The notes below the pieces were generated by a model that had not been told where the DNA came from, ran no database searches, and saw only the letters and a program-made list of their open reading frames with translations. Shown here piece after piece: positions 2,867 to 21,061 of a DNA stretch of 64,000 bases (positions are counted from its first letter, which is position 1; each line of letters starts with the position of its first letter). The stretch covers positions 1,354,948-1,418,947 of the forward strand of contig OY763937.1 in the NCBI GenBank assembly GCA_963667705.1, given 5' to 3'. The translations under genes were made by a program, and so were the position numbers. This stretch comes from Alphaproteobacteria bacterium. GTDB taxonomy: Bacteria; Pseudomonadota; Alphaproteobacteria; UBA828.

Positions 2867-3641
2867 CCTCTTGCGCTCAGCCTGCTATCACGGGCACGGG
2901 CAACATCCGCGATAGAGGATGCGTTCGCCAAGCGGCTGCACGGGCCGGCAGTTGCACGGACAAATCGCGGCCAAGGCGGTGATCTGCGCCGCTGACATCG
3001 AGCGCGGCGCGTCCGCGATGATCCAGGTGACACCTTCGATGCAGGGCGGGATCCTCAAGAAGCTTCCGTAGTGACACGTCGTGCGAGAGGAGGGCAGCAG
3101 CGACGCCAGCTCGACCTCTGCCGGCCCCGAGAGCCTGCGTCGGCGGTTCCGCCGATCCGCCTGTCTGGAAGACGGTGTCCGGATCGCCCGAATACTTCCA
3201 TCGCCCCTTCTGGTGGCAAGTCCCACCGGCGCACCAGCCGTTCCGAATGATTGCGCCTTGCGGCGATCCACTCCTCCCCCTCCGCACTTGGTCCGGCCGG
3301 TCCTGATGAAGCGGACAGGATGAAGTAGCGCCGCAATCGTTAGCCGATCGGAAGATCAAATGGAGCGCGGCGTCCGCTCGGTTAGGCTTGTCTGCGAAGT
3401 GCCACTGCATCATTGTCGCCATCACCGCGTGACCGAACGGTAACTTGGGACCTGCTGGGCGCAAGGACTCGGAAACTCGGCGGTCGGGGAATAAGGGGCA
3501 AGGAAGGTGGGGTGGTGCGATTCGGTGCTGCTGTCGGGCGGGATGCGGAAGTGCGATGGCAGTCGGGCTCGGAGGGCCTCAGCCGCATCAAGGGTCGCGG
3601 CTGCGTGTTGCCAATAGGGTCGGCGTGAGCGCGGATATCGA

Positions 3642-5552
3642 TCACGCGGCCAGCGTGACCTCCTGCTCTGCCATATCGCCATCGTCCTCCAGGACATCAT
3701 CTCCTTCCTCTAGGATGTCGCCCCGATAGATCGATATGCCGGTGGCTTGTTCGATTAGCGTTAGCAGGCGTTCATGCCGGTCTGTCACAAAAGCTTCGAA
3801 ATCGTCTGCTCGCAAAAGCATCGGGTCGATCAAGTGCGTCTCTAGGTGATGCTGCAGTGTGTCAATTGGAATCGGCTCCTGCTTTCCGATTCCGTTTGTG
3901 AGTTTGGCAAGATATTGGGAGGGTGCGATTCCGCCAAGCCGCCTGTTGGTGCGGTACGAAAGCGGTGTCTTGTTGACGATCGAATCGTAAATCTTCCAGT
4001 CTTTTCCGTTTTTCTTGCACCAGTCACGGGGAAAAATGTGATGAATATCGACGTTTTCTCCGAAGAACACGGTGTGGTTAAATTGCTGACCAGAGCAAAA
4101 ATCCTTAGCGCCTTCCCGCATTAGAAGCGCGTTTACGCCCTTGTAGGCGGCGGACAAGCGCATTCGCATGCTAAACAAGCGGTCCGCGCGAAAGGTGGCT
4201 TCCGTGACCGTGGATGGCTCAGATCCACCGGCTATCCATTGCGGGACTTCGATGAAATCCTTCGCAATTCGGCTCTCGACGGTCGAGCCATAGAGTTCTC
4301 CGAACACTCCTGCCCAGTACCAGCGGAGTAACTTTTCGCGCGCTGAGGCGTCATGCCATTGGTCCCCGATTTCAGCGAGGATGGCTGCCAACGGTACGAT
4401 CTGCGATTGGTAAGGAAGATCGAATTCACGGTAGATGTATTGCATGTTCAGAAACTTGGCGGCTTCCATGAAACCGTGTTCGAGTTGTTTCTGATATTGC
4501 AGATAGGCGGACAGCGGCAGCGCTAGCAGGGCACGTCGATTGCCTGAGACCGCCGGCAATTCCTTGCCGGTCCTTCCGGCCGCCGCGGCCTCTCGGCGCA
4601 AGTCGCGAGTGTGGAAGAGAGAGATAGCCTGCAGAAAATCCGTGTTGCCGACTTTGGACAGAATGCCGAAATCTTGTCCTGGTGCGCTGTAGGCGGTCTC
4701 CAATCGGTGATGTCTGCCCGGGATACCATCCGAACCGTACCAGTCCTTTCTCAGTTCATGGCCTTCGGCGGCATACATGGCCGTGACGAGCTCGAAGGCA
4801 TCCAGAGGTTTGCCACCAGTGTTGACTTTTTCGAATACGACGCAAACGGCTTCCTTACTGGTTTGCTTGTCTAGAGCGATCACCGGAACATTGTATTTTG
4901 TGAATTGATCGATAATCTCCTCTTTGAATGACTTAATGATATTCCATTGCTCATTGAAATTTCCTGCTCGCATCGAATATTCGATGAAGTCTTTTTGCCA
5001 ATCGTCCCAATCGAAAATGTGAGATATGGGATACATCAAGTTCTCAAACTCTGCTTCGCGGCTGGACAAATCGAGTTCTACGTTGCGGTTGAATGCACTT
5101 CTGACGACGCGATCTTGCGGAATGCCAATTATAGCGTCTTCCCGGTCGGTATCTCGGTCGAGAGCGGACATGATGTCGATATAGAACCAGCGACTCACCT
5201 TCTTGCGTTTAGGGGTGACTGTTTTCACTACCCTATTGCGGATCGTCACTTGGTAAAGGGATGTCATGCGCTGCTGGCCATCGAGCAACAGGGATTGCGG
5301 CGATGCGCTGCTTGCATCCGATGGAGCACCCTCGATCGTTCGTGGTTTGAACTCTACCGCTCCACCATGTTGAAGGGTCATGAGCGCGCCGATCGGGAAA
5401 CCTCGAGAAACGGATGCTATGAGGCTCTTGATCCTGTCTTCGTCCCATACCCAACTTCTCTGGAAATCTGGCAATTGCAGTTCACCGTTGTGGCACTGGC
5501 GCAGTAGGATCTCGAGCGCGTACGGATTGGTCTGGAAGGTCGATCCCGGCAT
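3642..5552 (-). CDS. GmrSD-family Type IV (modification-dependent) restriction endonuclease, DUF262 + DUF1524
   Basis: N-terminal DUF262/ParB-like motifs (LPDFQRSWVWD, LLLDGQQR). C-terminal DUF1524/HNH-like block (DIHHIFPRDWCKK). Lower GC than the flanks. An ATG at 5552 has an AAAGGGA Shine-Dalgarno; the reported ORF start at 5588 is a TTG. Confidence 0.8.
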   Translation of the reverse strand: MPGSTFQTNPYALEILLRQCHNGELQLPDFQRSWVWDEDRIKSLIASVSRGFPIGALMTLQHGGAVEFKPRTIEGAPSDASSASPQSLLLDGQQRMTSLYQVTIRNRVVKTVTPKRKKVSRWFYIDIMSALDRDTDREDAIIGIPQDRVVRSAFNRNVELDLSSREAEFENLMYPISHIFDWDDWQKDFIEYSMRAGNFNEQWNIIKSFKEEIIDQFTKYNVPVIALDKQTSKEAVCVVFEKVNTGGKPLDAFELVTAMYAAEGHELRKDWYGSDGIPGRHHRLETAYSAPGQDFGILSKVGNTDFLQAISLFHTRDLRREAAAAGRTGKELPAVSGNRRALLALPLSAYLQYQKQLEHGFMEAAKFLNMQYIYREFDLPYQSQIVPLAAILAEIGDQWHDASAREKLLRWYWAGVFGELYGSTVESRIAKDFIEVPQWIAGGSEPSTVTEATFRADRLFSMRMRLSAAYKGVNALLMREGAKDFCSGQQFNHTVFFGENVDIHHIFPRDWCKKNGKDWKIYDSIVNKTPLSYRTNRRLGGIAPSQYLAKLTNGIGKQEPIPIDTLQHHLETHLIDPMLLRADDFEAFVTDRHERLLTLIEQATGISIYRGDILEEGDDVLEDDGDMAEQEVTLAA

Positions 5553-5941
5553 GGAATGAGGTCCCTTTGCAGAATTTGGCGTCGTCAAGGTCGCACGCTG
5601 GTCGATCCGGACCGGATCAGAGGCGGTCGACGCGTTCAGCCGACCGTACGGGAGTGGGATTCAAAGGATTGGCGTCAGGCTGTCAATGGCGTTGACCACG
5701 CGCTGTGGTGCATCGGCGGAGAGCCGGTCGGCGCTCATCTTGCACGCCGATGGATCTCAGGCAGTGGGATTCGGGTCGTCGATGATCGCCGGCACGCGGC
5801 TGCGTCTTGCGGCCTTCGGAGCGTGAATGCATCTTGCAGGATGCAGCGGAGCAACATGGGATCGGAGCAGCGGCGCGTGCACTGTTCAGTTGAACCAAGC
5901 GAATGGACTCGCGCACCGCACTCGCGGGTCCCTCGGACACG

Positions 5942-8818
5942 ATGACGCCGGACGCGTTCATCGCCAAGTGGCAGGCGTCGGAGCTGAAGGAACGGTCGGC
6001 GGCGCAAGAACACTTCATCGACCTGTGCCGCTTGCTTGGCGAGCCGACGCCGGCAGAAGCCGATCCGGCAGGCGAGCGGTACTGCTTCGAGCGCGGCGCG
6101 CGGAAGGATACCGGCGGCGATGGCTGGGCGGACGTGTGGAAGCGCGGCTGCTTCGCCTGGGAGTATAAAAGCCCCCGCGCTGACCTCGACGCAGCGTTCA
6201 ACCAGTTGCGTCAATACGCGCTTGCCCTTGAGAACCCGCCGCTGCTGATCGTCTCGGACATGGCGCGGTACCGCATCCGCACCAACTGGACGAACAGCGT
6301 GAGTGCGACGCATGAGTTCACTCTCGAAGATCTCGCGGATGGATCGATCCGCGACACGCTCAAATGGGCGATGTCGAACCCGGAGCGCCTGCGTCCGGGC
6401 GAGACGCGGCAGGCAGTGACGGAACGCGCGGCGGCGACCTTCGCCGAGCTTGCCCAAGGCTTGCGGGACCGGGGCCACGATGCGCAGACGGTGGCGCATT
6501 TCGTCAACCGCCTGGTGTTCTGCATGTTTGCCGAAGACGTGGGCCTGCTGCCCAACGATATGTTCACCCGGATGCTGGAACGCACGCGCCGCGACCCTGA
6601 CAGGTTCGTGGATTACGCGTCGCGGCTGTTCGGCGCGATGGCCACGGGCGGCGATGTGGGGTTCGAGCCGGTGGCATGGTTCAACGGCGGGCTGTTCGAC
6701 GACGACGCGGCCTTGCCGCTCGACCTGGAGGGGATCGAGACGGCGCTCAAGGCGGCGGCGCTCGACTGGTCGGAGATCGACCCGTCGATCCTGGGGACGC
6801 TGTTCGAGCGCGGCCTCGACCCGGACAAGCGCTCGCAGCTCGGGGCGCACTACACCGACCGGGACAAGATCATGCGGATCGTCGAGCCGGTGATCGTCCG
6901 TCCGCTGCTCGCGGAGTGGGAGATGGCGAAGGCCGGGATCGCGGCCACGGTGGAGCGCGCCGACGCGGCGGGCTCGCCGGCCGCGCGGACACGACTGCGA
7001 CGGCAGGCTGAACGGGCGCTGCGTACCTTTCTGGAACGGCTGCGGACGTTCACCGTGCTTGATCCTGCCTGCGGGTCGGGCAACTTCCTCTATCTCGCGC
7101 TGCAGGCGCTCAAGGACATCGAGCACCGGGTCCAGCTTGAAACGGAGATGATGGGCCTTGCGCGCGGGTTTCCGGCAGTCGGCCCGGCAAACGTGAGGGG
7201 CATCGAGATCAACGCCTACGCTGCTGAGCTCGCCCGCGTGTCGGTGTGGATCGGCGAAATCCAGTGGATGCGTCGCAACGGGTTTAGCAACTCGGCCGAT
7301 CCGATTCTCGATTCGCTCGATACCATCGAATGCCGCGACGCTATCCTCGCGCCGGACGGAAGCGAACCCGACTGGCCGGAGGCCGACACCGTGATCGGCA
7401 ACCCGCCGTTTCTCGGCGGAAAGCTGCTTATCGGCGGGCTGGGGGAGGATTACGTCGGCCGGATGTTTGCGGCGTGGAAGGGTCGCGTACCTCGCGAGGC
7501 CGATCTCGTCTGCTACTGGTTCGTGAAGGCGGGCGAGCAAATCGCATCAGGCAAGGCAACGCGCGCCGGCCTCGTCGCCACGAACTCAATACGCGGGGGC
7601 GCGAACCGCCGGGCCCTGCAGGCCGCGATCGATGGGCGCCCGATTTTCAATGCCTGGTCAGACGAGCCGTGGGTTATCGACGGTGCGGCAGTGCGGGTAT
7701 CGCTGGTCAGCTTCTCCGGCGCAGGAGATGCGTGCAGGCCTGAGAACCATCTGAACGGGAAGCCGGTGGACGAAATCCATTCTGACCTCACGGCCAGGCG
7801 CGGCGGTTTCGGGATCGATCTGACCGGAGCGAGGCGCATCCCCACGAACTTCGAGATTGCCTTCATGGGCGATACCAAAAGCGGCGCATTTGACGTTCCG
7901 GGCTATCTGGCCCGCGAATGGCTCCGCCTAGCGGCCAATCCGAACGGGCGGCCCAATGCCGACGTTGTCAAACCCTGGTTCAACGGCATGGATCTCACCC
8001 GCCGCCCGGCGGGCAAGTGGATCGTAGATTTCGGGTGGCAGATGACGGAAGCGGACGCCGCGCTTTATGAAGCGCCCTTCGAGTACGTTAAGGAACACGT
8101 GTGGCCGAAGCGGCGGAAGAACAGGGCTGCGTCAGTCAGAAGACTTTGGTGGCGGCACGAGCGTCCGCGTCCGGATATGTGGAAGGCGCTCGATAGCCTG
8201 ACTCGGTTCATCGCGACGCCCACAGTCGCCAAACACCGGTTGTTCGTCTGGCTCGATGCGGGCGTTTGTCCCGACCACCAGCTGATTGTCATCGCCCGCG
8301 ACGACGACGTAAGCTTCGGCATCCTGCACAGCCGGTTTCACGAGGCATGGTCGCTGCGGCTCGGGACTAGCCTGGAGGACAGGCCGCGATACACCCCGAC
8401 CACCACCTTCGAGACCTTTCCCTTCCCTGTCGGCCTCACGCCCGACATCCCCGCCGCGGACTACGCCGAAGATCCGCGCGCCATAGCCATCGCTGACGCC
8501 GCGCGGCGGCTGGCAGACTTGCGCGACCGCTGGCTCAACCCGCCCGAATGGGTGGAGTGGATGGATGAGCCGGTGCCGGGCTATCCGAAGCGTCCGGCCG
8601 CCCGCGACGAGGAGTCGGCGAGACACCTCAAGACGCGCACGTTGACCAACCTATATAACGCACGGCCACAATGGCTCGACGATGCCCACCAAGAGCTCGA
8701 TGCTGCCGTGGCGGCAGCCTACGGGTGGGATGCGGGGATTCCCGAGGAGGACGTGTTGGTTGAGTTGTCAGAACGCAATTTCGCCGCAAATGCTAAAGGA
8801 CACCTGAGGACATCGTGA
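5942..8818 (+). CDS. MmeI-family Type IIL/IIG restriction-modification fusion enzyme (N-terminal PD-ExK endonuclease + N6-adenine methyltransferase + TRD)
   Basis: The N-terminus aligns to the MmeI nuclease domain (EHFIDLCRLLGEP; D-x9-E-Y-K in GWADVWKRGCFAWEYKS; PPLLIVSDMARYRIRTN). Methyltransferase motif I is VLDPACGSGNFL and motif IV is NPPF (VIGNPPFLGGK). About 960-970 aa, comparable to MmeI (919 aa). The start could also be the ATG at 5903. Confidence 0.8.
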   Translation: MTPDAFIAKWQASELKERSAAQEHFIDLCRLLGEPTPAEADPAGERYCFERGARKDTGGDGWADVWKRGCFAWEYKSPRADLDAAFNQLRQYALALENPPLLIVSDMARYRIRTNWTNSVSATHEFTLEDLADGSIRDTLKWAMSNPERLRPGETRQAVTERAAATFAELAQGLRDRGHDAQTVAHFVNRLVFCMFAEDVGLLPNDMFTRMLERTRRDPDRFVDYASRLFGAMATGGDVGFEPVAWFNGGLFDDDAALPLDLEGIETALKAAALDWSEIDPSILGTLFERGLDPDKRSQLGAHYTDRDKIMRIVEPVIVRPLLAEWEMAKAGIAATVERADAAGSPAARTRLRRQAERALRTFLERLRTFTVLDPACGSGNFLYLALQALKDIEHRVQLETEMMGLARGFPAVGPANVRGIEINAYAAELARVSVWIGEIQWMRRNGFSNSADPILDSLDTIECRDAILAPDGSEPDWPEADTVIGNPPFLGGKLLIGGLGEDYVGRMFAAWKGRVPREADLVCYWFVKAGEQIASGKATRAGLVATNSIRGGANRRALQAAIDGRPIFNAWSDEPWVIDGAAVRVSLVSFSGAGDACRPENHLNGKPVDEIHSDLTARRGGFGIDLTGARRIPTNFEIAFMGDTKSGAFDVPGYLAREWLRLAANPNGRPNADVVKPWFNGMDLTRRPAGKWIVDFGWQMTEADAALYEAPFEYVKEHVWPKRRKNRAASVRRLWWRHERPRPDMWKALDSLTRFIATPTVAKHRLFVWLDAGVCPDHQLIVIARDDDVSFGILHSRFHEAWSLRLGTSLEDRPRYTPTTTFETFPFPVGLTPDIPAADYAEDPRAIAIADAARRLADLRDRWLNPPEWVEWMDEPVPGYPKRPAARDEESARHLKTRTLTNLYNARPQWLDDAHQELDAAVAAAYGWDAGIPEEDVLVELSERNFAANAKGHLRTS

Positions 8819-8825
8819 GCAGGCC

Positions 8826-9506
8826 ATGAACGCGAAACTGCTGGCCATGAACCTTATTCGGCATATCGGGGACCGAGTGTCGGAATTGGGGCAACCAATC
8901 GAACAGTTTTCTGGTTTTAGCGCACAAATCGATGCCCCCAGCGAAGAGATCGCGTATAACCTCCTAGAAGAACTACAAGAACGAAAACTCGTTATATTTA
9001 GCAGAGTCATAAGGGCATTTGAAGGCACTACGTTCACGAACGTCAATCTAAGCTTGGACGGCTGGGAGGAGTACGATAGGGAAAAGCTCGGTGCATTCGA
9101 TGGCAACTACGGGTTTATCGCCATGAAATTCGGCGATGAGCAGCTTGATATATTCGTTCGCGATGTGGTGAAACCAGCTATTCGAGAGCAGTTGGGAATT
9201 GATCTTGTAGACTTGCGCGATGTGGAGCAAGCAGGAGTTATCGACGACATCATGCGCGTAAAGATCAGAGACTCGAAGTTCGTTATCTCTGACCTCACTC
9301 ACGACAATCATGGAGCCTATTGGGAAGCGGGATACGCAGAAGGTTTGGGAAAGCCGGTGGTGTACATCTGCGACAGGGAGAAGTTCGAGAAAGTTGGCAC
9401 TCATTTTGATGTCAACCACTGCACAACTATCGCGTGGTCTACTGAGGACAGTGATGGATTTTGCTCCAGGTTGATCGCAACACTGCGTCGATCCTTGGAT
9501 CTGTAA
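8826..9506 (+). CDS. Nucleoside 2-deoxyribosyltransferase-like (PF05014/SLOG-fold) protein with about 100-aa N-terminal extension
   Basis: GFIAMKFGD and DLTHDNHGAYWEAGYAEGLGKPVVYIC match the NDT signature (YLAGPFF...DSGTAFELGYAYALGKPV), including the catalytic Glu. GC is about 47%. The gene starts 8 bp after the MmeI-like stop. Confidence 0.6.
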   Translation: MNAKLLAMNLIRHIGDRVSELGQPIEQFSGFSAQIDAPSEEIAYNLLEELQERKLVIFSRVIRAFEGTTFTNVNLSLDGWEEYDREKLGAFDGNYGFIAMKFGDEQLDIFVRDVVKPAIREQLGIDLVDLRDVEQAGVIDDIMRVKIRDSKFVISDLTHDNHGAYWEAGYAEGLGKPVVYICDREKFEKVGTHFDVNHCTTIAWSTEDSDGFCSRLIATLRRSLDL

Positions 9507-9770
9507 CCTAATGCCCTTGGCAATTCGGTGCAAGCACCCTCGATTCCACAAGCGCCGATTCACACTGGCTATCTTGACACTGCTGTGTCCCACTCTGAAC
9601 GTTGCCTGTTGGCGGCAGCTACCGACAAAAAACTTCACCTCCAAAATATCCGACGGTGTCCTTGCCACTGGAATTCCCGCGATCATGACAGCCATGCCGA
9701 GATCTCCCTCGTCTCACCATCGTCTCAAGGGCGGATGCGGCATGTACCCTTCCCGCTCAGGAACCCTGCA

Positions 9771-10664
9771 ATGGCTCTATACAAGTACGTGACTTTCAAA
9801 AACGCGATGCATGTTCTGGAGGGAACCATCCGGTTCACACAGCCAGGCGCCTTTAACGATCCATTCGAGATGGTTCCCGAACTTCATGTTCCCGAAGGCT
9901 TTGGCGGCGACAGAGAGATCAATATGTCATTCTCCGTTACTGCGCCGAGACGAGTAACGAGGGATTACGAATTGGCGCCCGACTTCGAGTCAGACCATTG
10001 CAGCGACAGCAATTCTCGCTCAATACGTTCATCACTCGATCAGACCATCGGTATTCTGTGCTTGTCGAAGAATCCTGCCTCACTGTTGATGTGGTCGTAC
10101 TACGCAGATCAGTACGCAGGAGCTGTTGTAGAATTCGATGACTCACACGACTTTTTTCGTGGTAGCTTTCCGATTGAGTACAGAGAGCATCGCCCGAAGT
10201 TGGACGTTAGCTACTATGAGTCCAACAATGAGCCTATTCCCGTCGCTGAACTTTGCGTAAAGCCAAAGGAATGGGAACACGAAAGAGAAGTCAGGGTAGC
10301 TCGAAGCCTGTCGGACTGCCAGCTAGTACAGGACACAAGTGCTGACGGATATCCGGTTTATGTAATGTCCATCCCTGTCGAGTGCGTCAAGGCAGTCACT
10401 ATGGGAGAACGCATGCCTGTTGAACATCAGCGTCACATTTGGGAAATGGTCAAAGACCGCAATCTCTCCCTTCATCTGGACGCGATATCCAACTGGGGCT
10501 ACGATCTCAGAAGAGATACTATCAAGCTACCAGGAATGAAGAGCCCTATTATCAGCCCTAGAACTGCACACATCTTCGTCCAGGACTCTGGACCAACAGG
10601 GGATATCGCTCGATGGCAACTCAAGTCCAATAAGTTAGCTCAATTTGTGAACGATACCCTATAG
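9771..10664 (+). CDS. DUF2971-family protein
   Basis: Begins MALYKYVTF...FTQPGAFNDPFE, which is the DUF2971 N-terminal signature (LYKY...FNDPFE). Low GC. An in-frame upstream extension to 9528 is judged non-coding. Confidence 0.65.
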   Translation: MALYKYVTFKNAMHVLEGTIRFTQPGAFNDPFEMVPELHVPEGFGGDREINMSFSVTAPRRVTRDYELAPDFESDHCSDSNSRSIRSSLDQTIGILCLSKNPASLLMWSYYADQYAGAVVEFDDSHDFFRGSFPIEYREHRPKLDVSYYESNNEPIPVAELCVKPKEWEHEREVRVARSLSDCQLVQDTSADGYPVYVMSIPVECVKAVTMGERMPVEHQRHIWEMVKDRNLSLHLDAISNWGYDLRRDTIKLPGMKSPIISPRTAHIFVQDSGPTGDIARWQLKSNKLAQFVNDTL

Positions 10665-11142
10665 ACTCTGGATACGATGAGATTGCTTTCATCGATTGCT
10701 TGTGTAGAGGCTCCAACCAACTCGCGAGCGACGTCATCTCGCCCAGGACGCTTTTGTAATTCGGGGATGTGCAGTAGGGGTTCGATCGATAGTAGCGATT
10801 GGTCGCTCTCCAATGAACATTGAGCGCTTCGTCGTTGGGTTCGCTGGATGGCTCTGGCGCGAGTTCTCAGCTCCAGCGTTTCGTGAGCTGGTCTAAGATG
10901 CTTATGCTTGGCGTACCAGAGTGGATTGAACCCCCAACTCCCAAAGGGACGAGGAAGTCTAGCTTGCTCTGAAAGCTCTCGGTCAACGGCGTCGGCCTCT
11001 CTTCTTGAGTGCTCACAAGACTATCAGGAGCAGGCGGCCTCCACACCATGTGGTGTGTTGCACGGGCTTTTATCCAGCGTACGATGGGCATTGATCGAGA
11101 ACACGGTCATGACCGTGCGAACCCATGGCGCGGGTGATCTGG

Positions 11143-12042
11143 CTATTTCGATAATTTAGCGTAGTACTGTACACCGAGGACATTCGCTATCTCTTGCAGC
11201 TCCTTGGGAAATACCCCGCCTACCGCCAGCAGACAATCTGCAACTGGAATTATGCGGTCATGAACCTGTTGAGCGCGCAAGACAGCCTTATATTTGACAC
11301 ACTGAAAGATGCCACGATGGAGTTCGTCGAATCCAGCGCTCGCAGTCTTCACTTCGACAGCAACCGCCTCCCTTTGAAAGTACACGTCTACTCTGTCGCC
11401 CGACCATAACGTGAACTCCTGAATGCCGCTATCGTCGGTCTTCAAGCCGACTACTGTCGGATTATTCGCAACTTGTTCTTTGAGCCTTTTGTGCGCGTTG
11501 CTTTCTGAGCCACTACTCCATCCGCCAGGATTAGGATGACGACGCTTCGATCTGGAACGCTTCCGCGAGCGCTTCGTTTCTTTGAGCCCGCACGCCCTAA
11601 GAACATCTCCCCACGACGGAAAGTCAAATATCTCGGTATGTGCCCGATCTATGATCGCTCGTTTTTTCCGGTCGGATAGTTTGGTTGGATCGACGTTACG
11701 ATCCAAGTAATCCTTACAAAAGCGCCTAATGTACTCGTTCGCGCCTTTTCCTGGCAAGTTGAGTTTTTCGTTTACCACCAAGAGATTGATTGGAGGTACC
11801 TTAGTACCGGTTTGATCCGCATAGTCCTTGCATGCATCGCCAATGGCTCCAGCGGGTCTACCATAAAGAACGGACATAACGTGTTGTCCCAAGCCTCTCT
11901 TCACAATTTCTTTATCCCAGCCACTATAAGTGATCGTCTGGCGTTTTCTGGCATATTCAACAAGAATGGGAAAACCAATTCGTGCCGTGCGTTTAGTCCA
12001 CGAGTTTCCTTCTAGTCTCCTAACTTTCATTTGATTTCCCAT
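11143..12042 (-). CDS. Hypothetical protein with C-terminal PD-(D/E)xK-like nuclease-fold motif and basic S/R/K-rich linker
   Basis: 299-aa ORF in the low-GC region. GDRVDVYFQ...AVAVEVK fits a D...(D/E)xK pattern. The linker KETKRSRKRSRSKRRHP separates two domains. No family recognised. Confidence 0.5.
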   Translation of the reverse strand: MGNQMKVRRLEGNSWTKRTARIGFPILVEYARKRQTITYSGWDKEIVKRGLGQHVMSVLYGRPAGAIGDACKDYADQTGTKVPPINLLVVNEKLNLPGKGANEYIRRFCKDYLDRNVDPTKLSDRKKRAIIDRAHTEIFDFPSWGDVLRACGLKETKRSRKRSRSKRRHPNPGGWSSGSESNAHKRLKEQVANNPTVVGLKTDDSGIQEFTLWSGDRVDVYFQREAVAVEVKTASAGFDELHRGIFQCVKYKAVLRAQQVHDRIIPVADCLLAVGGVFPKELQEIANVLGVQYYAKLSK

Positions 12043-12219
12043 GGTTTGTCTCTTGCAAGCTAAGTCTGAAGAGTGTTGGGCAGTTTAGACGTCGGCGGGG
12101 CTGAACCCAGCTCGCTGAGGTCAATCCGTGCTTCACATTCGCGATCGGGTCCAGTTAGTTGGCGCGCAGTGTACTACGTATGAGCTCGTTTGACGTACAA
12201 GACAAATGCCAACACGGGC

Positions 12220-12648
12220 TTACTCAAGACTCCGGGCTTGCACGGATTGAAAGCGTGCGAAGTCCCGATCATTGGTGAGAATCGTGTCGATGCCGTGCTC
12301 GCCGCAGAGCGCAGCAATCTGCGCGTCGAACATCAGGTTTCCGTGCGCATTACCTTGGAGGGCTGCTGCGATGAAATGGTCGAGAAACTCAGGGCCGGGC
12401 CGAACAAGCTCGCAACTCGGGGCGGCAACGATTCCCTGGATGAAGGCGGTGGCCTGGGCCACGGTGGACGGTGGATTGAACACACGCCGGTGCGTGACGA
12501 CCCGCATGAACTCGGTAACGCAGAAGATGGGAAGAGCCCACCGCTCCACGCCTTGAGCTAGCGCGGTGATCCGCGATGCTGCCGGGCCATGCAGCTCGGT
12601 TTCGCCGCGATGGGAGTAGATCAGGATGTTGGTGTCTACGGCGATCAC
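12220..12648 (-). CDS. vapC: PIN-domain toxin VapC
   Basis: MIAVDTNILIY... PIN motif with acidic residues (D5, E, D). 4-bp overlap with the upstream antitoxin gene. Confidence 0.85.
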   Translation of the reverse strand: MIAVDTNILIYSHRGETELHGPAASRITALAQGVERWALPIFCVTEFMRVVTHRRVFNPPSTVAQATAFIQGIVAAPSCELVRPGPEFLDHFIAAALQGNAHGNLMFDAQIAALCGEHGIDTILTNDRDFARFQSVQARSLE

Positions 12649-12881
12649 GCGCGGTCGATTACCTCGTATAGCGCGTCGCGGTCGGCGATGTCGACGTTGG
12701 GCGGTGATGTTCCGATGACCGTCTCAAGCCGCAATCGGAAACCGCGCTTTCTGCGGCGTGCATCCGAGAGCCGCGCGCGCAAGGCGTCCTCGACAAATCT
12801 GGTCAGCGTGATCCCTTCGCGCGCCGCCCGTCCCTTTGCCTGGCGCAGCACTTGATCGTTGAGATTGAGTGTGGTCTTCAT
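12645..12881 (-). CDS. vapB: VapB-type antitoxin (RHH/CopG-like)
   Basis: MKTTLNLNDQVLRQAKGRAAREGITLTRFVEDALR is typical of an RHH antitoxin. The stop overlaps the vapC start. Confidence 0.7.
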   Translation of the reverse strand: MKTTLNLNDQVLRQAKGRAAREGITLTRFVEDALRARLSDARRRKRGFRLRLETVIGTSPPNVDIADRDALYEVIDRA

Positions 12882-13994
12882 GCCAGCGTTGCCTAGTTGG
12901 AGAGCGTATGGCTGAACCATATCATGGGCGACGGAGCAAGGGAACGACTCATGGCTCGAGCCTGGTCGCCCGGAGACGTCTGCACGACGGCAGCGAGCGA
13001 TGTTCGTGTACTAAGGCCTTGGCGTTGAACTGGGAATCGTATGGGAATCAGCCGAATTCTACTTCCAGGGCGCTCAAGACCGCTCGTGACCTGATCGGCG
13101 TCCGAGCAACGGTGGACGGTGAAGAGACGGTGCCGCGCATGATCCGAGTCTGCAATCCCGGCCCAGCTTCGGCTGGAGCAAATTGTGGAGCCGCAAGAAC
13201 AGGTTATGGCACCCGAATTGCCGGATCGCGTCGAGTTTCTGGAGGGCCAACGCTTAGGCCGGCGCGGTTCACGCAGACCTGACCTTCAGATGGAACACCT
13301 GAAGTTATCTTCATTATGCGGTGAGAGCGCGACGAGACGGCGGTGGACGGGGCGACGCTGACGCTCATCTTCGACGGAGCGCTGGACAAGGCGTCGGTGC
13401 CGGCCGCGGTGCGCTTCGCAGTGGTGGGGACGAGGTCGGGGAGCCGAATTGCCTCCACCCGGTCTCCTCCGGCAACATCGAGACAGGTGCTCAACCGCTC
13501 GCTCGAGACCGTCCTTTGTGGCTCGCGGAGGATCTCATCCGTGTAGGAGATCGTCTCGATGCCTGTTGCCCGATCCACCATGTTTGCCTCGTAAACCCCG
13601 GACCCGCCTCTGCCACCCGGTATGCGCCCGGGGTCTCGCTCCTTTGAGCCCGATCCGGCCACGCCGGCTCTTGCGCGGCGGCGTTCCGCCTCCCGCGGAA
13701 GCCCCGTCGCAAGATCGCTCTGCGGGCCCTCTCTGCGTCTTCCTCTACTTTGCGGAAATCCGGCTCAAGCTTCTTCAGCCGGTCCACCAGATCGCCGAGG
13801 AGAACATTTCGCAAGATCAGTGGACAGGAGAGGTCTAGAGAGGACTGGAGGGACTGATAGTTTCTATTTCAATGTGTTACAGAATTGAGCAAATGGCTTG
13901 GCGTCCCCTGAGACCTTCTGAGCACCCGCTGGGTTGATTTCTCGTGTTGGCTAGAGTGGTGACATAGTCCGAACCAATCTCATGGATCCCGCCC

Positions 13995-15329
13995 ATGAAA
14001 CCTCCATCCGCCAAACGCGTCGCCCGCGTCAAGCTCACACTGACCAAGCGCGCCGTCCAGGCCATGACCCCCGGCGACAAACCGTGGATCGCATGGGACG
14101 ACAAGCTCACCGGATTCGGCGTCCAGGTTCACCCCAAAGGTGCCAAGTCGTTCCTCGTCAATTACCGCACCGGCGGCGGCGGTAGGAAGGCGCCCAACAA
14201 GCGCGTCGTCCTCGGCCGTTTCGGCAGGCTCTCGGTCGCCGAGGCCCGGAGAATGGCACACCAGGCCCTCGGCAAGGCCGCCGGCGGCGACGATCCGGCA
14301 GTGAAGCGCGCCACTGCGCGCGTCATGCCCCTGCTGGAGGCCATGCCCCTGCTCGAGCAGGCCTTCGAGGACTACATGAAAGTCAACCCCAAGCGGGCCG
14401 AGAGAACGAACAGGATGTACCGCGCCGAGTTCGCGAACTGCCTCGGCGACTGGCGCAGCCGTCCCCTTGATTCAATCCAGTGGCGCGACGTGGAGGAGCG
14501 TTTCTTCCGCCTCACCCGCGACCACGGCTGGGCCGGGGCCAACCGCGCGATCGCCCTGCTGCGCTCGGTCTACCGCCGGCCCTGCGTCGACATCGAGGGC
14601 CTGCATAATCCGGTCGATCTGTGGCTCGCCGGCGGCGGCGAGTACCATCGCCCGAGGCGGCGCAAGATCTCGAACCCGGCCGAGGTGCTGCCGCTCTGGC
14701 GGGCCGGGATCGAGGCCGTGGTGGTCACTCCCGCGTCGCGCGACGCCTTCTTCTTCGGGCTCTACACCGGCATGCGCGTCCAGGAGGTGCTGCCGCTGCG
14801 CTGGGAGCGCATCGACATGGAGGGCCTTTCCTTCCGGGTCGACGAGACCAAGACGGGCGAGCCGCTGGAGCTTCCCGTCACACGCCAACTGGCCACCCTC
14901 CTCGCCCGCCGCCGGGCGGAGAGCGAGGAGCTGCGCGGCAATCTTCGGGACTGGGTGTTCCCGTCCACCGTGAGCGGCTCCGGCCACGTCGCCAACCTGA
15001 GCCATCTCTATGCCAGGATCGGCGCGGCCGGCGGTGCGAAGTTCTGGTACCACGGCCTGCGCAACGCCTTCATCACCGTGGCCGAGCGCGACCTTCTGCT
15101 GCCGCGCACCCTGACCAAGCGTCTGGTCAACCACGCCCGGCCGGGCGACGTCATCGAGGGCTACGCCGCCGACTGGACCGTCGGGCAACTGCGGCGTCCC
15201 GCGCAACTGATCGCCGACCGCATCGAGGCGCTGATGAACAGCAGCACGCCGGACCAGGCCACTACGACGGCGGCCGCAACAGCCCCCGCCGACGCCGATG
15301 CCGTGGTGCGCACGGAGGCGACATCGTGA
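13995..15329 (+). CDS. Tyrosine-type site-specific integrase (DUF4102/P4-like N-terminal arm-binding domain)
   Basis: The N-terminus (LTKRAVQAMTPGDKPWIAWDDKLTGFGVQVHPKGAKSFLVNYR) is the DUF4102 integrase signature. The C-terminal catalytic region has WYHGLRN...GY. Confidence 0.85.
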   Translation: MKPPSAKRVARVKLTLTKRAVQAMTPGDKPWIAWDDKLTGFGVQVHPKGAKSFLVNYRTGGGGRKAPNKRVVLGRFGRLSVAEARRMAHQALGKAAGGDDPAVKRATARVMPLLEAMPLLEQAFEDYMKVNPKRAERTNRMYRAEFANCLGDWRSRPLDSIQWRDVEERFFRLTRDHGWAGANRAIALLRSVYRRPCVDIEGLHNPVDLWLAGGGEYHRPRRRKISNPAEVLPLWRAGIEAVVVTPASRDAFFFGLYTGMRVQEVLPLRWERIDMEGLSFRVDETKTGEPLELPVTRQLATLLARRRAESEELRGNLRDWVFPSTVSGSGHVANLSHLYARIGAAGGAKFWYHGLRNAFITVAERDLLLPRTLTKRLVNHARPGDVIEGYAADWTVGQLRRPAQLIADRIEALMNSSTPDQATTTAAATAPADADAVVRTEATS

Positions 15330-16570
15330 GCGCGCCCTCCGGCAAGCGCGTTGCGCTGAACAGGCTGACCCTGACGGTCCGCAGCGTGGACGCGCTCAAG
15401 CCGACAGAGCGGTCCTGGATCGCCTGGGACGACAGGCTGACCGGGTTCGGCGTGCGCGTGCAGCCGACCGGCCTCAAGTCCTTCGTCGTCAACTACCGTG
15501 CCGGCGACGGCGGGCGCAAGGCGCCCAACAGGCGCGTGGTGTTGGGCCGCCGCTGCGATATGTCGGTGACGGAGGCGCGGCGGAAGGCGCGGCGGATGCT
15601 GGCTGCGGTGGCCCGTGGCGAGGACCCGGCGGGCGGGCGCAGGCAGCAGCGCGCCATGCCCGTGCTGGAACGGGCCTTCGAGGACTTCATGAGCGTCAAT
15701 CCCGGGCGGGCCGCGGTCACCGAGAGGCTCTACCGCGAGGAGTTCGCCCGCCACTTCGCCGATTGGCGCGAGCGTCCCCTCGACGACATCGCGCGGCGCG
15801 ACGTGGAAGCCCTGTTCGTCCGGCTGACGGAAGACAGCGGCTGGTCGCCGGCCAACAGGGCGGTCTCGCTGTTGCGCTCGATCTATCGCAGGCCGTGCGT
15901 CGATTTCAAGGACCTGCGCAACCCGGTCGACCTATGGCTCGCGGGCGGCGGCAGGTATCACCGAAACAGGCGGCGCAGGATCTCCACCCCGGCGGAGGTC
16001 CTGCCGCGCTGGAAGAAGGGCATCGAGGACTCGGTGGGCACGCCGTGTGTGCGCGATGCCTTCTGGTTCGGCCTCTACACCGGCATGCGGCTGCGCGAGG
16101 TGCTGGCCCTGCGCTGGCGAAGCGTGGATCTGGCGGCGCTGGTCTTCCGGGTCGACAAGACCAAAGCGGGCACGCCTCTCGAACTGCCGGTCACCCGGCA
16201 ACTGGCAGCGATCCTCGAACGACGCCTCGCCGACGGTCCCGGCGAGTGGGTGTTCCCGTCGACCCTGCCCGGCGCGCTCGATCACATCGCGGACCTGTCG
16301 CAATACTACAAGCGCATCGGCGAGGCGGGCGGCGCGCGCTTCTGGTACAACGGCCTGCGCAACGTCTTCTTCACCGTGGCAGAGCGCGACCTGCTGCTGT
16401 CTCAGCCGCTGACCAAGCGGCTGGTGAACCACGCCCCGGCCTCCGACGTCACCGAGGGCTATGCGGCGGACTGGACCATCGAGCAGTTGCGCGAGCCGGC
16501 GCAGCGAATCGCGGATCGCATCGAGGCGCTGATGACGGGCGAGGGCGAGACCAGCGCCGGGCCCGCGTAG
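15326..16570 (+). CDS. Tyrosine-type site-specific integrase, paralog of the preceding gene
   Basis: GTG start overlaps the previous stop (GTGA). Same domain order and about 60% identity to the upstream integrase (LTVRSVDALKPTERSWIAWDDRLTGFGVRVQPTGLKSFVVNYR). Confidence 0.85.
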   Translation: MSAPSGKRVALNRLTLTVRSVDALKPTERSWIAWDDRLTGFGVRVQPTGLKSFVVNYRAGDGGRKAPNRRVVLGRRCDMSVTEARRKARRMLAAVARGEDPAGGRRQQRAMPVLERAFEDFMSVNPGRAAVTERLYREEFARHFADWRERPLDDIARRDVEALFVRLTEDSGWSPANRAVSLLRSIYRRPCVDFKDLRNPVDLWLAGGGRYHRNRRRRISTPAEVLPRWKKGIEDSVGTPCVRDAFWFGLYTGMRLREVLALRWRSVDLAALVFRVDKTKAGTPLELPVTRQLAAILERRLADGPGEWVFPSTLPGALDHIADLSQYYKRIGEAGGARFWYNGLRNVFFTVAERDLLLSQPLTKRLVNHAPASDVTEGYAADWTIEQLREPAQRIADRIEALMTGEGETSAGPA

Positions 16571-19500: not shown

Positions 19501-19975
19501 GGGCGGCGCTCTCGTTCTGCAGTTCGATGGCGGAGAAGGTCTCCCAGAAGCGGGCGGCGGCGCGGACGAGCACGGTCTCAGCTCAGGGGGGGGGGTGACA
19601 GTTACCCCCAGGATTGCCCTGCGCTGCTCGCATTTCTGCATACGGCACGGGCATGTATCTGGCCTCAATAGGCATTTTCATTCTCGGCAGCGGGCTGCTA
19701 TCCGGGTTGGTCGAGAGACTGACAAAGGGCGGTCGAGCAGCCGATGAACGGGTTATGGCCAGGAGCCGTTTGGCGCCGTCGCCCGGCCGGGCTGACTGCG
19801 CGCTCAGCAGTTGTCGGGGAAAGTGGCCGATGATCATCGTGAGCGTCCGGTTCGAGCCAAGGCGGTTCCACCGCTCGTCACCGCCAGAGGGGCGATTGGG
19901 CTCGGTCTTCCACTCCCTGCGCGCTTCGACATCCCCGGTCCCCTTCCGCGCTTCGGAGCAACAGCGGTGAGGAAG

Positions 19976-20230
19976 ATGGACACTCGGGACGAAATTCAGG
20001 CTGCGCTTGACGCCGTCCTGCCCGAGTTCGTGAAACCCTGCGAGGCGGCCGCCATCCTGCGCGTGAGCACGAAGTCCCTCGAGCGCTACCGGACACATGG
20101 GGGCGGGCCCGCCCACTACATGTTCGGCATTTCCATCGTCTACGCCCTGGCCGACCTCGCCGATTGGGCGGCTGCGCAACGCTATCTCCACACCGGCCAG
20201 TTCCATACCCGCCAGCCGGGCACGCTCTGA
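19976..20230 (+). CDS. Excisionase/AlpA-like HTH (HTH_17) small DNA-binding protein
   Basis: ILRVSTKSLERYRTHGGGPAHYMFGISIVYALADLADWA matches the Xis/MerR-like HTH_17 pattern. GGTGAGGAAG Shine-Dalgarno lies upstream of the ATG. Confidence 0.6.
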   Translation: MDTRDEIQAALDAVLPEFVKPCEAAAILRVSTKSLERYRTHGGGPAHYMFGISIVYALADLADWAAAQRYLHTGQFHTRQPGTL

Positions 20231-20383
20231 TCGGGGTGATGTCGTGTCGGGATCGGTGCCGCCGGGGCAGCTGACGGTTTCGCGTGAATTCCGAATGTCC
20301 GCGCGTCCGAACCGACGCCGGCCCGGGCGCTCCCGCTGCACCGGCCGGCACGCCTGCCCGATCCACCGGTGGAGACCGGGCAG

Positions 20384-21061
20384 ATGAACATGATCGAAGC
20401 CGAGTTCCTGGACGCCATCTCGGCCTGGCTCACGCGCTCCGCAGTGGGCGACAGGAGGCTCGGCGAGCTCGCGCTCGACGATCCTGAGTTCGTCCCCGAC
20501 CTGAATGATGGTGCTTCGCCGGGTCTCGACGCGGTCGACCAAGTGCTCCGCTTCATGGACATTGCCCCCATCGGTCCGAGGTTCCGGCGGGAGGTCGAGG
20601 CATTCCTCATCGTCACCAGGACCGAGCCCGCCCTGCTCGGGACCAGAGCGATCGGAAAATCCTCGTTCGTGGGGGAGCTCCGAAGCGGAGCGTCGCCGAC
20701 GCTCGACAGCGTCGCTCGGGTGAGGTCCTGGATGCACGGCGCTGCCGATGATTTCCATCGCACCGGTATCGCGTGGCTGCTCGCAAGTGATGTCACGGTC
20801 CCGCCCTACGGGCTTGGCGCAGCGTTCCCGCCGTGGACCGATGACGACGAGCAGATCCCGAAGATTGATGAGGGGACCTTTCTCACCCCGCGCGAAGCGG
20901 CGAACGTCGTCGGGCTCTCACCCGCAGCGCTCCAGAGCTACCGGATCTCCGGCGACGGACCGGCGTTCCATAAGTTCGGGCGCCGGGTGTTGTACGCGCG
21001 CTTCGATCTCGACGTGTGGGCGAAAGCGAGGTTCGGGCAAAGATTGCTCAGCGCCGTCTGA
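20384..21061 (+). CDS. Hypothetical protein with duplicated N-terminal module and C-terminal excisionase-like HTH
   Basis: Two related about 50-aa modules (PEFVPDLNDGASPGLDAVDQVLRFMD and SSFVGELRSGASPTLDSVARVRSWMH). C-terminal LTPREAANVVGLSPAALQSYRISGDGPAFHKFGRRVLYARFDLDVWA. Confidence 0.6.
   Translation: MNMIEAEFLDAISAWLTRSAVGDRRLGELALDDPEFVPDLNDGASPGLDAVDQVLRFMDIAPIGPRFRREVEAFLIVTRTEPALLGTRAIGKSSFVGELRSGASPTLDSVARVRSWMHGAADDFHRTGIAWLLASDVTVPPYGLGAAFPPWTDDDEQIPKIDEGTFLTPREAANVVGLSPAALQSYRISGDGPAFHKFGRRVLYARFDLDVWAKARFGQRLLSAV

Follow-up and report, generated by a model that had tools for sequence, protein, structure and literature searches.

Genes found inside restriction-modification, BREX or Hma systems often prove to be defence genes. 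PrrC, an anticodon nuclease encoded inside a Type Ic hsd locus, acts as a backup to EcoprrI when restriction is inhibited. The effectors of type II retrons (Retron-Eco1/Ec86, Sen2 RcaT) combine a nucleoside 2-deoxyribosyltransferase (NDT)-like domain with a winged-helix DNA-binding domain (PMC7736814). DUF2971 has been predicted to be a DarT-like ADP-ribosyltransferase (PMC12522546), and in Aristaios, a plasmid-borne system, a lone DUF2971 gene protects Lactococcus against phage (PMC11381338). Here, three genes (A, B, and C) at positions 8826–12042 of a 64,000-nucleotide stretch of Alphaproteobacteria bacterium DNA (contig OY763937.1, positions 1,354,948 to 1,418,947; hereafter the window) were analysed. 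They follow an MmeI-like Type IIL restriction-modification gene, and a first-pass annotation of the window had proposed that they form a single defence module. Our survey showed that they are not one conserved cassette and are probably independent genes, and that the conserved partner of A is the upstream restriction-modification gene, which had been taken as mere context. The noteworthy part of the locus is A, a member of a large uncharacterised family that is repeatedly inserted in restriction-modification operons of three architectures.

Gene A and its restriction-modification neighbours

Gene A (8826–9506, + strand, 226 amino acids [aa]) was defined from the open reading frame (ORF) listing and by direct reading. 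Seven nucleotides separate its ATG from the stop codon (8816–8818) of the MmeI-like gene (5903–8818, + strand, 971 aa); the first-pass annotation was right to place A directly behind this stop. The MmeI-like enzyme was identified with Pfam (MmeI_Mtase, MmeI_hel, MmeI_TRD, and MmeI_C) and PADLOC (REase_MTase_IIG, 997 bits), and its nuclease motif GWADVWKRGCFAWEYK is intact. The possibility that A stands in for a lost MmeI nuclease was rejected, as the motif is intact in both A-linked and unlinked MmeI genes.

The neighbourhood of A was assessed by scanning one genome per species, which yielded 80 loci with A homologues (designated by L numbers below). At least 32 of these loci, including 21 of the 38 with the short form of A, are embedded in, or adjacent to, restriction-modification genes: 22 Type IIL loci, three with Type IIL remnants, one with a distant Type IIL gene, three Type ISP loci, two Type I loci, and one two-methyltransferase locus. 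In 22 of the 80 loci, A is preceded on its own strand by an MmeI-like gene that is 65–76% identical to that of the window; the gap measures 8–66 nt in 13 of them. In five further loci, an apparent gap of 310–350 nt proved to be an N-terminal extension of A, so that MmeI abuts the long form of the gene. Only the final 45 to 95 MmeI codons remain upstream of A in L010, L023, and L045, and the MmeI-like gene of L055 is distant. A Type ISP enzyme (Mrr_cat_2, helicase, ISP_coupler, N6_Mtase, and Type_ISP_C domains) precedes A with a 5-nt gap in L002, with a 4-nt overlap in L179 (counted besides the 80 loci), and 930 bp upstream in L069, and as a remnant in L058. In L054 and L060, the genes run hsdM-(x)-hsdS-A-hsdR and their stop and start codons overlap; A has here the position of prrC in EcoprrI. 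In L047, A is flanked by two large N6_N4 methyltransferases. The junction of A with the 3′ end of the MmeI-like gene, already singled out by the first-pass annotation, is thus a recurrent, non-random arrangement. Across lineages, A is nested in or operonic with restriction-modification genes, as in the PrrC paradigm.

The remaining neighbours of A included NACHT and PNP-STAND NTPases, AAA_15/21 ATPases, RES toxins, insertion sequence (IS) elements and, in some loci, housekeeping genes. In six loci, mostly from Latescibacterota (L009, L013, L014, L019, L020, and L080), an ABC-type ATPase of ~390–510 aa (median ~400; AAA_15/AAA_21, AbiLi/AriA-like in PADLOC) begins ~10–70 nt after A. A gene of ~330–370 aa comes next in four of the six, and in L009 and L080 the string contains four genes and starts with MmeI-A. 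One close MmeI homologue without A is followed by an unrelated 264-aa gene without a Pfam match, whose start overlaps the MmeI stop (L168:7898–8692); in this MmeI clade, the 3′ end may serve as a common docking site for accessory genes.

A short leader travels with A. DNA homology between the window and two loci that have no MmeI gene (L001 and L084) spans only 8758/8762–9509, that is, A and the 68 nt upstream (8758–8825, + strand). In the window, this leader also contains the end of the MmeI-like ORF, with its last ~10 codons and its stop codon. Direct or inverted repeats flanking A, as a sign of a cassette or an attC-like site, were found at chance level only, and the signals in a promoter and terminator scan of 8400–12400 were not above shuffled expectation.

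The AlphaFold model of A (26 homologues as input, mean predicted local distance difference test score 82.9) showed a winged helix at residues 1–88 and a Rossmann-like domain of TIR/NDT fold at residues 92–226. The NDT-like domain that the first-pass annotation had assigned to this ORF was therefore present in the predicted structure, and the motif GAYWEAGYAEGLGKPV was found in A behind the N-terminal domain; the extra domain was likewise confirmed, at ~90 aa rather than ~100. Residues D140, D156, N161, E167, E172, K176, and H193-F-D-x-N-H198 are invariant in the A family and conserved across phyla. When the family profile was aligned with Lactobacillus leichmannii NDT, the sequence of which had been checked against 1f8x, E167 fell on the nucleophile E98 of 1f8x and E172 on a Leu. 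The residue proposed earlier as catalytic, E172, is thus replaced by E167 as the equivalent of the NDT nucleophile, with both Glu residues invariant. In this alignment, which is weak as a whole and clear in the motif, E-A-G-Y-A-E-G-L-G-K-P-V of A is matched with E-L-G-Y-A-L-S-Q-G-K-Y-V of NDT. A therefore has the features expected of an NDT: a flavodoxin-like fold and a nucleophile Glu at a helix start, followed by G-Y-A...G-K-P-V.

The only Pfam match of the window protein was Nuc_deoxyrib_tr (PF05014), the family suggested in the first-pass annotation; it was detected at 22.7 bits, under the gathering threshold of 28.8. Five long-form homologues scored 20.5–24.8 bits, only a distant Leptospira homologue passed (29.2 bits), and precomputed PF05014 matches exist for about half of the close homologues. 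PADLOC returned a domain-level match (2e-9) to PDLC00733, a protein model that bears the name 'Effector' and the description TIR. The NCBIfam search gave a chance-level match only (E 0.007, 15 bits vs. a cut-off of 650), and neither single sequences nor profiles of A, B, and C found anything significant among PDB sequences.

A profile search of 1.84 billion cluster representatives showed the size of the A family, with 743 clusters at E ≤ 1e-30 and 4,722 at E ≤ 1e-10, counted at 50% identity. Nearly all representatives are 315–340 aa long, and the 226-aa short form makes up a single 50%-identity cluster; the window protein is thus a rarer, truncated form of a family of which most members are ~100 aa longer. 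A zinc ribbon (CPxC...CxxCG) and a helix (LT..QRA.LSH.LR) are conserved in the extra ~100 N-terminal residues of the long form, and the CxxC...CxxCG motif was present in 38 of 42 long-form loci. Examples of the long form are found in L020–L079 (e.g., L049:9692–10675 and L073:9698–10699) and among representatives P0361–P0509. Ten family members scanned, long forms included, had no PADLOC match beyond domain-level TIR models, and no model specific to the family was found in PADLOC 2.0. In addition, no paper in the library searched connects MmeI or Type IIG enzymes with an accessory gene of NDT- or TIR-like type. Homologues of A were absent from the 50,697 phage genomes of INPHARED, and a search of IMG/VR gave just two weak matches.

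The GC content of A is below that of the host in all 80 genomes; the difference is usually ~10–20 points and no more than a few in some loci, a pattern that fits frequent transfer. Across L001–L080, typical values are 43–58% for A vs. 55–73% for the host, and the adjacent MmeI-like gene is always at host GC. Three side observations were made. In L173–L178, A lies amid IS elements and a group II intron. Directly 3′ of the A homologue in L011 (10690–10790) is a run of 7-nt tandem repeats (GAGGCAA/GAGGCGA). A distant A-like gene on a Leptospira plasmid, beside a large methyltransferase, was set aside because the methyltransferase is unrelated to MmeI.

Genes B and C and the mobile island

Gene B is held by an ORF at 9528–10664 (+ strand), and the homologous part starts at ATG 9771 (9771–10664, + strand, 297 aa), a start that matches the gene call in a sister contig (L085). 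A 93-codon ORF at 9511–9792 occupies the A–B spacer and overlaps the B start, and L085 also has a 93-aa gene call between A and B. The earlier DUF2971 assignment of B holds: B matched PADLOC PDLC04990 (PDC-S31) at 4e-33 over profile positions 8–253 of 259 and phrog_1762 at 2e-39, and the Pfam DUF2971 match is marginal, with 21.3 bits, 0.7 bits under the 22.0 cut-off. B also contains a WEHEREVR (ExE) motif, and PDC-S31 is listed in PADLOC as a single-gene candidate. B adds a new member to a single-gene family already known as a candidate or validated, and is a predicted DarT-like ADP-ribosyltransferase.

The product of gene C (11143–12042, − strand, 299 aa) has a helical domain at its N-terminus, followed by a basic linker and, at its C-terminus, a PD-(D/E)xK nuclease domain. 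Both the core fold and the D...(D/E)xK catalytic motif were found, in agreement with the PD-(D/E)xK-like call and the basic linker of the first-pass annotation, and D219, E230, K232, Q247, K250, and Y251 are invariant. A total of 168 homologues of C were detected. The helical domain carries a conserved PPINLLVVN...PGxG motif without family assignment. C had no match in four family libraries, and NCBIfam matched neither B nor C. A metagenome scan yielded 80 loci with C homologues, and no recurrent neighbour was seen in them. C is thus an unclassified stand-alone predicted nuclease; it may be an enzyme of the restriction type whose N-terminal domain reads DNA.

All three ORFs noted in the first-pass annotation are real genes, because each has hundreds to thousands of conserved homologues. 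Their GC contents are 48.8% (A), 49.4% (B), and 48.9% (C), and that of 8826–12042 as a whole is 50.5%, compared with 65.6% for the MmeI-like gene and 65.7% for the window; GC at third codon positions is 0.56 in A vs. 0.81 in the MmeI-like gene. The value of about 47% given previously was too low; the contrast with the surroundings was correct, and the lateral origin proposed for these genes is supported.

The view that A, B, and C form one three-gene defence system joined to the MmeI-like enzyme would have meant a new defence system, but is not supported by the evidence. A, B, and C do adjoin one another and are similarly low in GC, and the trio recurs in L085, which is colinear with the window as MmeI′-A-B-C-PIN′ at 89–91% DNA identity. 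L085 is, however, the same island in a sister strain, with ~90% DNA identity, and is therefore not an independent observation. Elsewhere, none of the 80 A loci contained a B or C homologue and none of the 80 C loci contained an A homologue. An iterated DUF2971 profile run over all fetched loci (~170) found only L085 and L092. In L092, an unrelated metagenome contig, a C homologue with 41% identity is immediately preceded, on its own strand, by a distant DUF2971 gene (3579–4466 and 4545–5444); this single case in ~170 loci favours the one-system view, is taken as no more than a lead, and could be chance or a weak B–C link. The closest relatives of the window speak against it. L081, the closest one with longer flanks, is colinear with GmrSD-MmeI-A of the window (~88% DNA identity; 88.8% for GmrSD), its homology ends 19 nt after the A stop, and B and C are replaced there by an RNase_T/BRCT gene and further cargo; no B or C homologue was found in L081 or L084. 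C is also convergent to A and B and lies 478 bp from B, a distance that includes a 414-bp insertion (10678–11091, no strand), and a DUF2971 gene is sufficient alone in Lactococcus. The neighbourhood survey thus largely refuted the three-gene module, as neither B nor C accompanied A outside the near-identical sister island, and we regard a single system as very improbable. More generally, low-GC genes that lie side by side in a defence island often represent independent cargo, and caution is needed before they are read as an operon.

Two further features of these spacers were noted. The 414-bp insertion, delimited by blastn against L085 and by self search, is missing from L085 and contains no repeat, database match or convincing ORF. 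In the closest A relatives (82–89% DNA identity), a fusion of a DEDD exonuclease (RNase_T) with BRCT lies directly downstream of A (L001:3199–4071, L081:6035–6901, and L084:10821–11231), where it takes the place of the DUF2971 gene, and the A–RNase_T spacer is conserved.

The setting of these genes is a defence island, as had been proposed. In order, it contains a GmrSD-type Type IV restriction enzyme (3642–5588, − strand, 648 aa, 52.8% GC; Pfam GmrSD_N 7e-30), the MmeI-like Type IIL gene, A, B, C, a PIN toxin pair, and two tandem integrases. The PIN toxin (12220–12648, − strand; Pfam PIN 2e-13) has a putative small antitoxin upstream (12645–12920, − strand; DUF6364 3.5e-5, below cut-off), and the tyrosine integrases (13995–15329 and ~15330–16570, both + strand) each carry Arm-DNA-bind_3 and Phage_integrase. 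The trio had been described as sitting between Type IIL and Type IV genes; the sole Type IV gene, GmrSD, is instead upstream of the MmeI-like gene, and what lies beyond C is the toxin-antitoxin pair and the integrases. Two ORFs inside the island, at 1166–2995 (609 aa) and 19583–20758 (391 aa), have no Pfam match. Housekeeping genes return at ~22 kb, and no transfer RNA gene marking an integration site was found in the window. In L168 and L170, close MmeI homologues stand beside the same tandem integrase pair with different cargo in between. The tandem integrases and the differing cargo indicate that 8826–12042 is a variable cargo slot of an integrative/mobile defence island.

Candidate roles of gene A

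We consider it probable, with appreciable room for doubt, that the slot holds A, B, and C as independent genes, of which A is an embedded N-glycosidase effector and B and C act as stand-alone genes. In this proposal, A would be a putative second-layer effector beside the restriction-modification enzyme, kept silent by its DNA-binding N-terminus or by contact with that enzyme. Infection that continues despite restriction, or a block of restriction, would be the trigger, sensed through the DNA-binding modules or the state of the restriction-modification enzyme. The Rossmann-like domain would then cleave, via E167, the N-glycosidic bond of nicotinamide adenine dinucleotide (NAD+) or a (deoxy)nucleotide, and the phage would be starved or the infection aborted. 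If so, an NDT-like N-glycosidase would join the immune effectors outside retrons. A broader proposal is, in our view, rather doubtful: the A family would be an unrecognised class of immune effectors that guards single-chain Type IIL, Type ISP, and Type I enzymes and sets off a nucleotide or NAD+ N-glycosidase once these are blocked or, more radically, excises bases from phage DNA that has slipped past restriction.

Several observations weigh against an embedded effector. About 60% of the A loci have no adjoining restriction-modification gene, and some lie amid housekeeping genes (gyrA, sulfatases). All three sampled close MmeI homologues (85–87% identical) lack A, showing that the restriction-modification enzyme does not need it; A is an optional extra and not a subunit. 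Co-phylogeny of A and MmeI was weak (Spearman 0.11; Pearson 0.39, from few close pairs), which argues against a tight co-evolving protein complex, and co-evolution of the two was dropped as unconvincing. In the A tree, MmeI-linked and unlinked genes are interspersed, and together with the weak co-phylogeny this points to repeated shuffling. As for the enzymatic assignment, the hhalign comparison of A with 1f8x was weak (E 0.044, 28 columns), and the NDT and TIR sequence-model matches of A are below curated thresholds.

Three other roles for A were weighed. A might be an N-glycosidase acting on DNA, in which the winged helix and, in long forms, the zinc ribbon bind DNA and the NDT fold excises a modified or unmodified base, as a complement to restriction-modification enzymes where hypermodified phage DNA escapes them; A would then be the first NDT-fold enzyme working on DNA itself. 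The fusion of two nucleic-acid-binding modules to a fold that cleaves N-glycosidic bonds is consistent with this role, as are the activity of its nearest fold relatives, which include DNPH1 and MilB, on modified pyrimidine nucleotides, and its place in a slot where restriction-modification systems often hold a modification-dependent partner. NDT pockets, however, enclose a free nucleoside or nucleotide, A matches no DNA-glycosylase family by sequence or fold, and we know of no NDT- or TIR-fold enzyme that works on polymeric DNA, so that we give this role a small chance. A slimmer chance is given to A as a non-catalytic one-component regulator, with the winged helix on an operator and the Rossmann-like domain sensing a nucleotide ligand, which would tune expression of the neighbouring restriction-modification or defence genes. 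A DNA-binding domain joined to a ligand-binding one is the classical make-up of one-component regulators, the SLOG sensor of ThsA has the same fold, and A is tightly operonic with restriction-modification genes. Nevertheless, the NDT nucleophile position and its surrounding acidic residues are invariant across phyla, A lies downstream of the restriction-modification gene and not ahead of it, 60% of its loci offer no such gene to regulate, and close MmeI homologues manage without it.

It is also unlikely, with a small but real chance, that A is non-defensive, either a salvage or housekeeping N-glycosidase or a selfish hitch-hiker that shares recombination-prone islands. Its housekeeping flanks in some loci, its GC below that of the host, as for an often-transferred gene, and the IS elements and group II intron of L173–L178 would suit such a gene. 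Same-strand junctions from a 4-nt overlap to 66 nt nevertheless recur with three restriction-modification architectures, and co-residence in an island can hardly account on its own for the insertion between hsdS and hsdR. Moreover, salvage NDTs have no DNA-binding domains, and A was unmatched in the phage genomes searched. An embedded effector remains our preferred role for A.

Comparison with known systems

B spans the PDC-S31 profiles end to end and shares DUF2971 and the ExE ADP-ribosyltransferase motif with Aristaios, although it is distant from the Lactococcus protein, to which it is likened by domain and motif and not by direct comparison. C resembles NucS/AF1548-, Can2-, and Shedu-type nucleases in its C-terminal fold and D...ExK...QxxxY motif, and differs from them in having neither CARF nor the N-terminal domains of Shedu and NucS.

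Compared with NDT, DNPH1, and MilB (PF05014), the A of the window scores below the gathering threshold, has an extra winged helix (and a zinc ribbon in the long forms), and occurs in the context of conflict systems, not salvage. Unlike TIR effectors (PDLC00733, Thoeris ThsB, and SARM1-type NADases), A matches no Pfam TIR model and carries the NDT signature, E-x-G-Y-A-x-x-x-G-K-P-V, in its active site. Neither a cyclase nor a ThsA-like domain appeared among the Pfam matches of the scanned island ORFs or, in loci without MmeI, among the 25 commonest Pfam families of 114 A-adjacent genes; no partner-specific model was used in either search.

Type II retron effectors contain the same two kinds of domain as A in one small protein. 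Their NDT domain is N-terminal, whereas the order is reversed in A, and no sequence similarity between them is detectable. A was not assigned to a retron, given that no reverse-transcriptase domain was seen among the Pfam matches of the scanned island ORFs. The RVT_1/GIIM gene in L173–L178 was rejected as a retron candidate, as GIIM marks a group II intron.

As with PrrC in EcoprrI (and RloC), one additional gene sits within restriction-modification operons; A occupies the prrC slot between hsdS and hsdR in L054 and L060, and the restriction-modification enzyme can do without it. Unlike PrrC, A contains neither an ABC ATPase nor an anticodon-nuclease domain, with a winged helix and an NDT/TIR fold instead, and the enzymes that host it are for the most part single-chain ones of Type IIL and Type ISP. 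If A is a second-line effector, the PrrC principle would extend to these common single-polypeptide enzymes.

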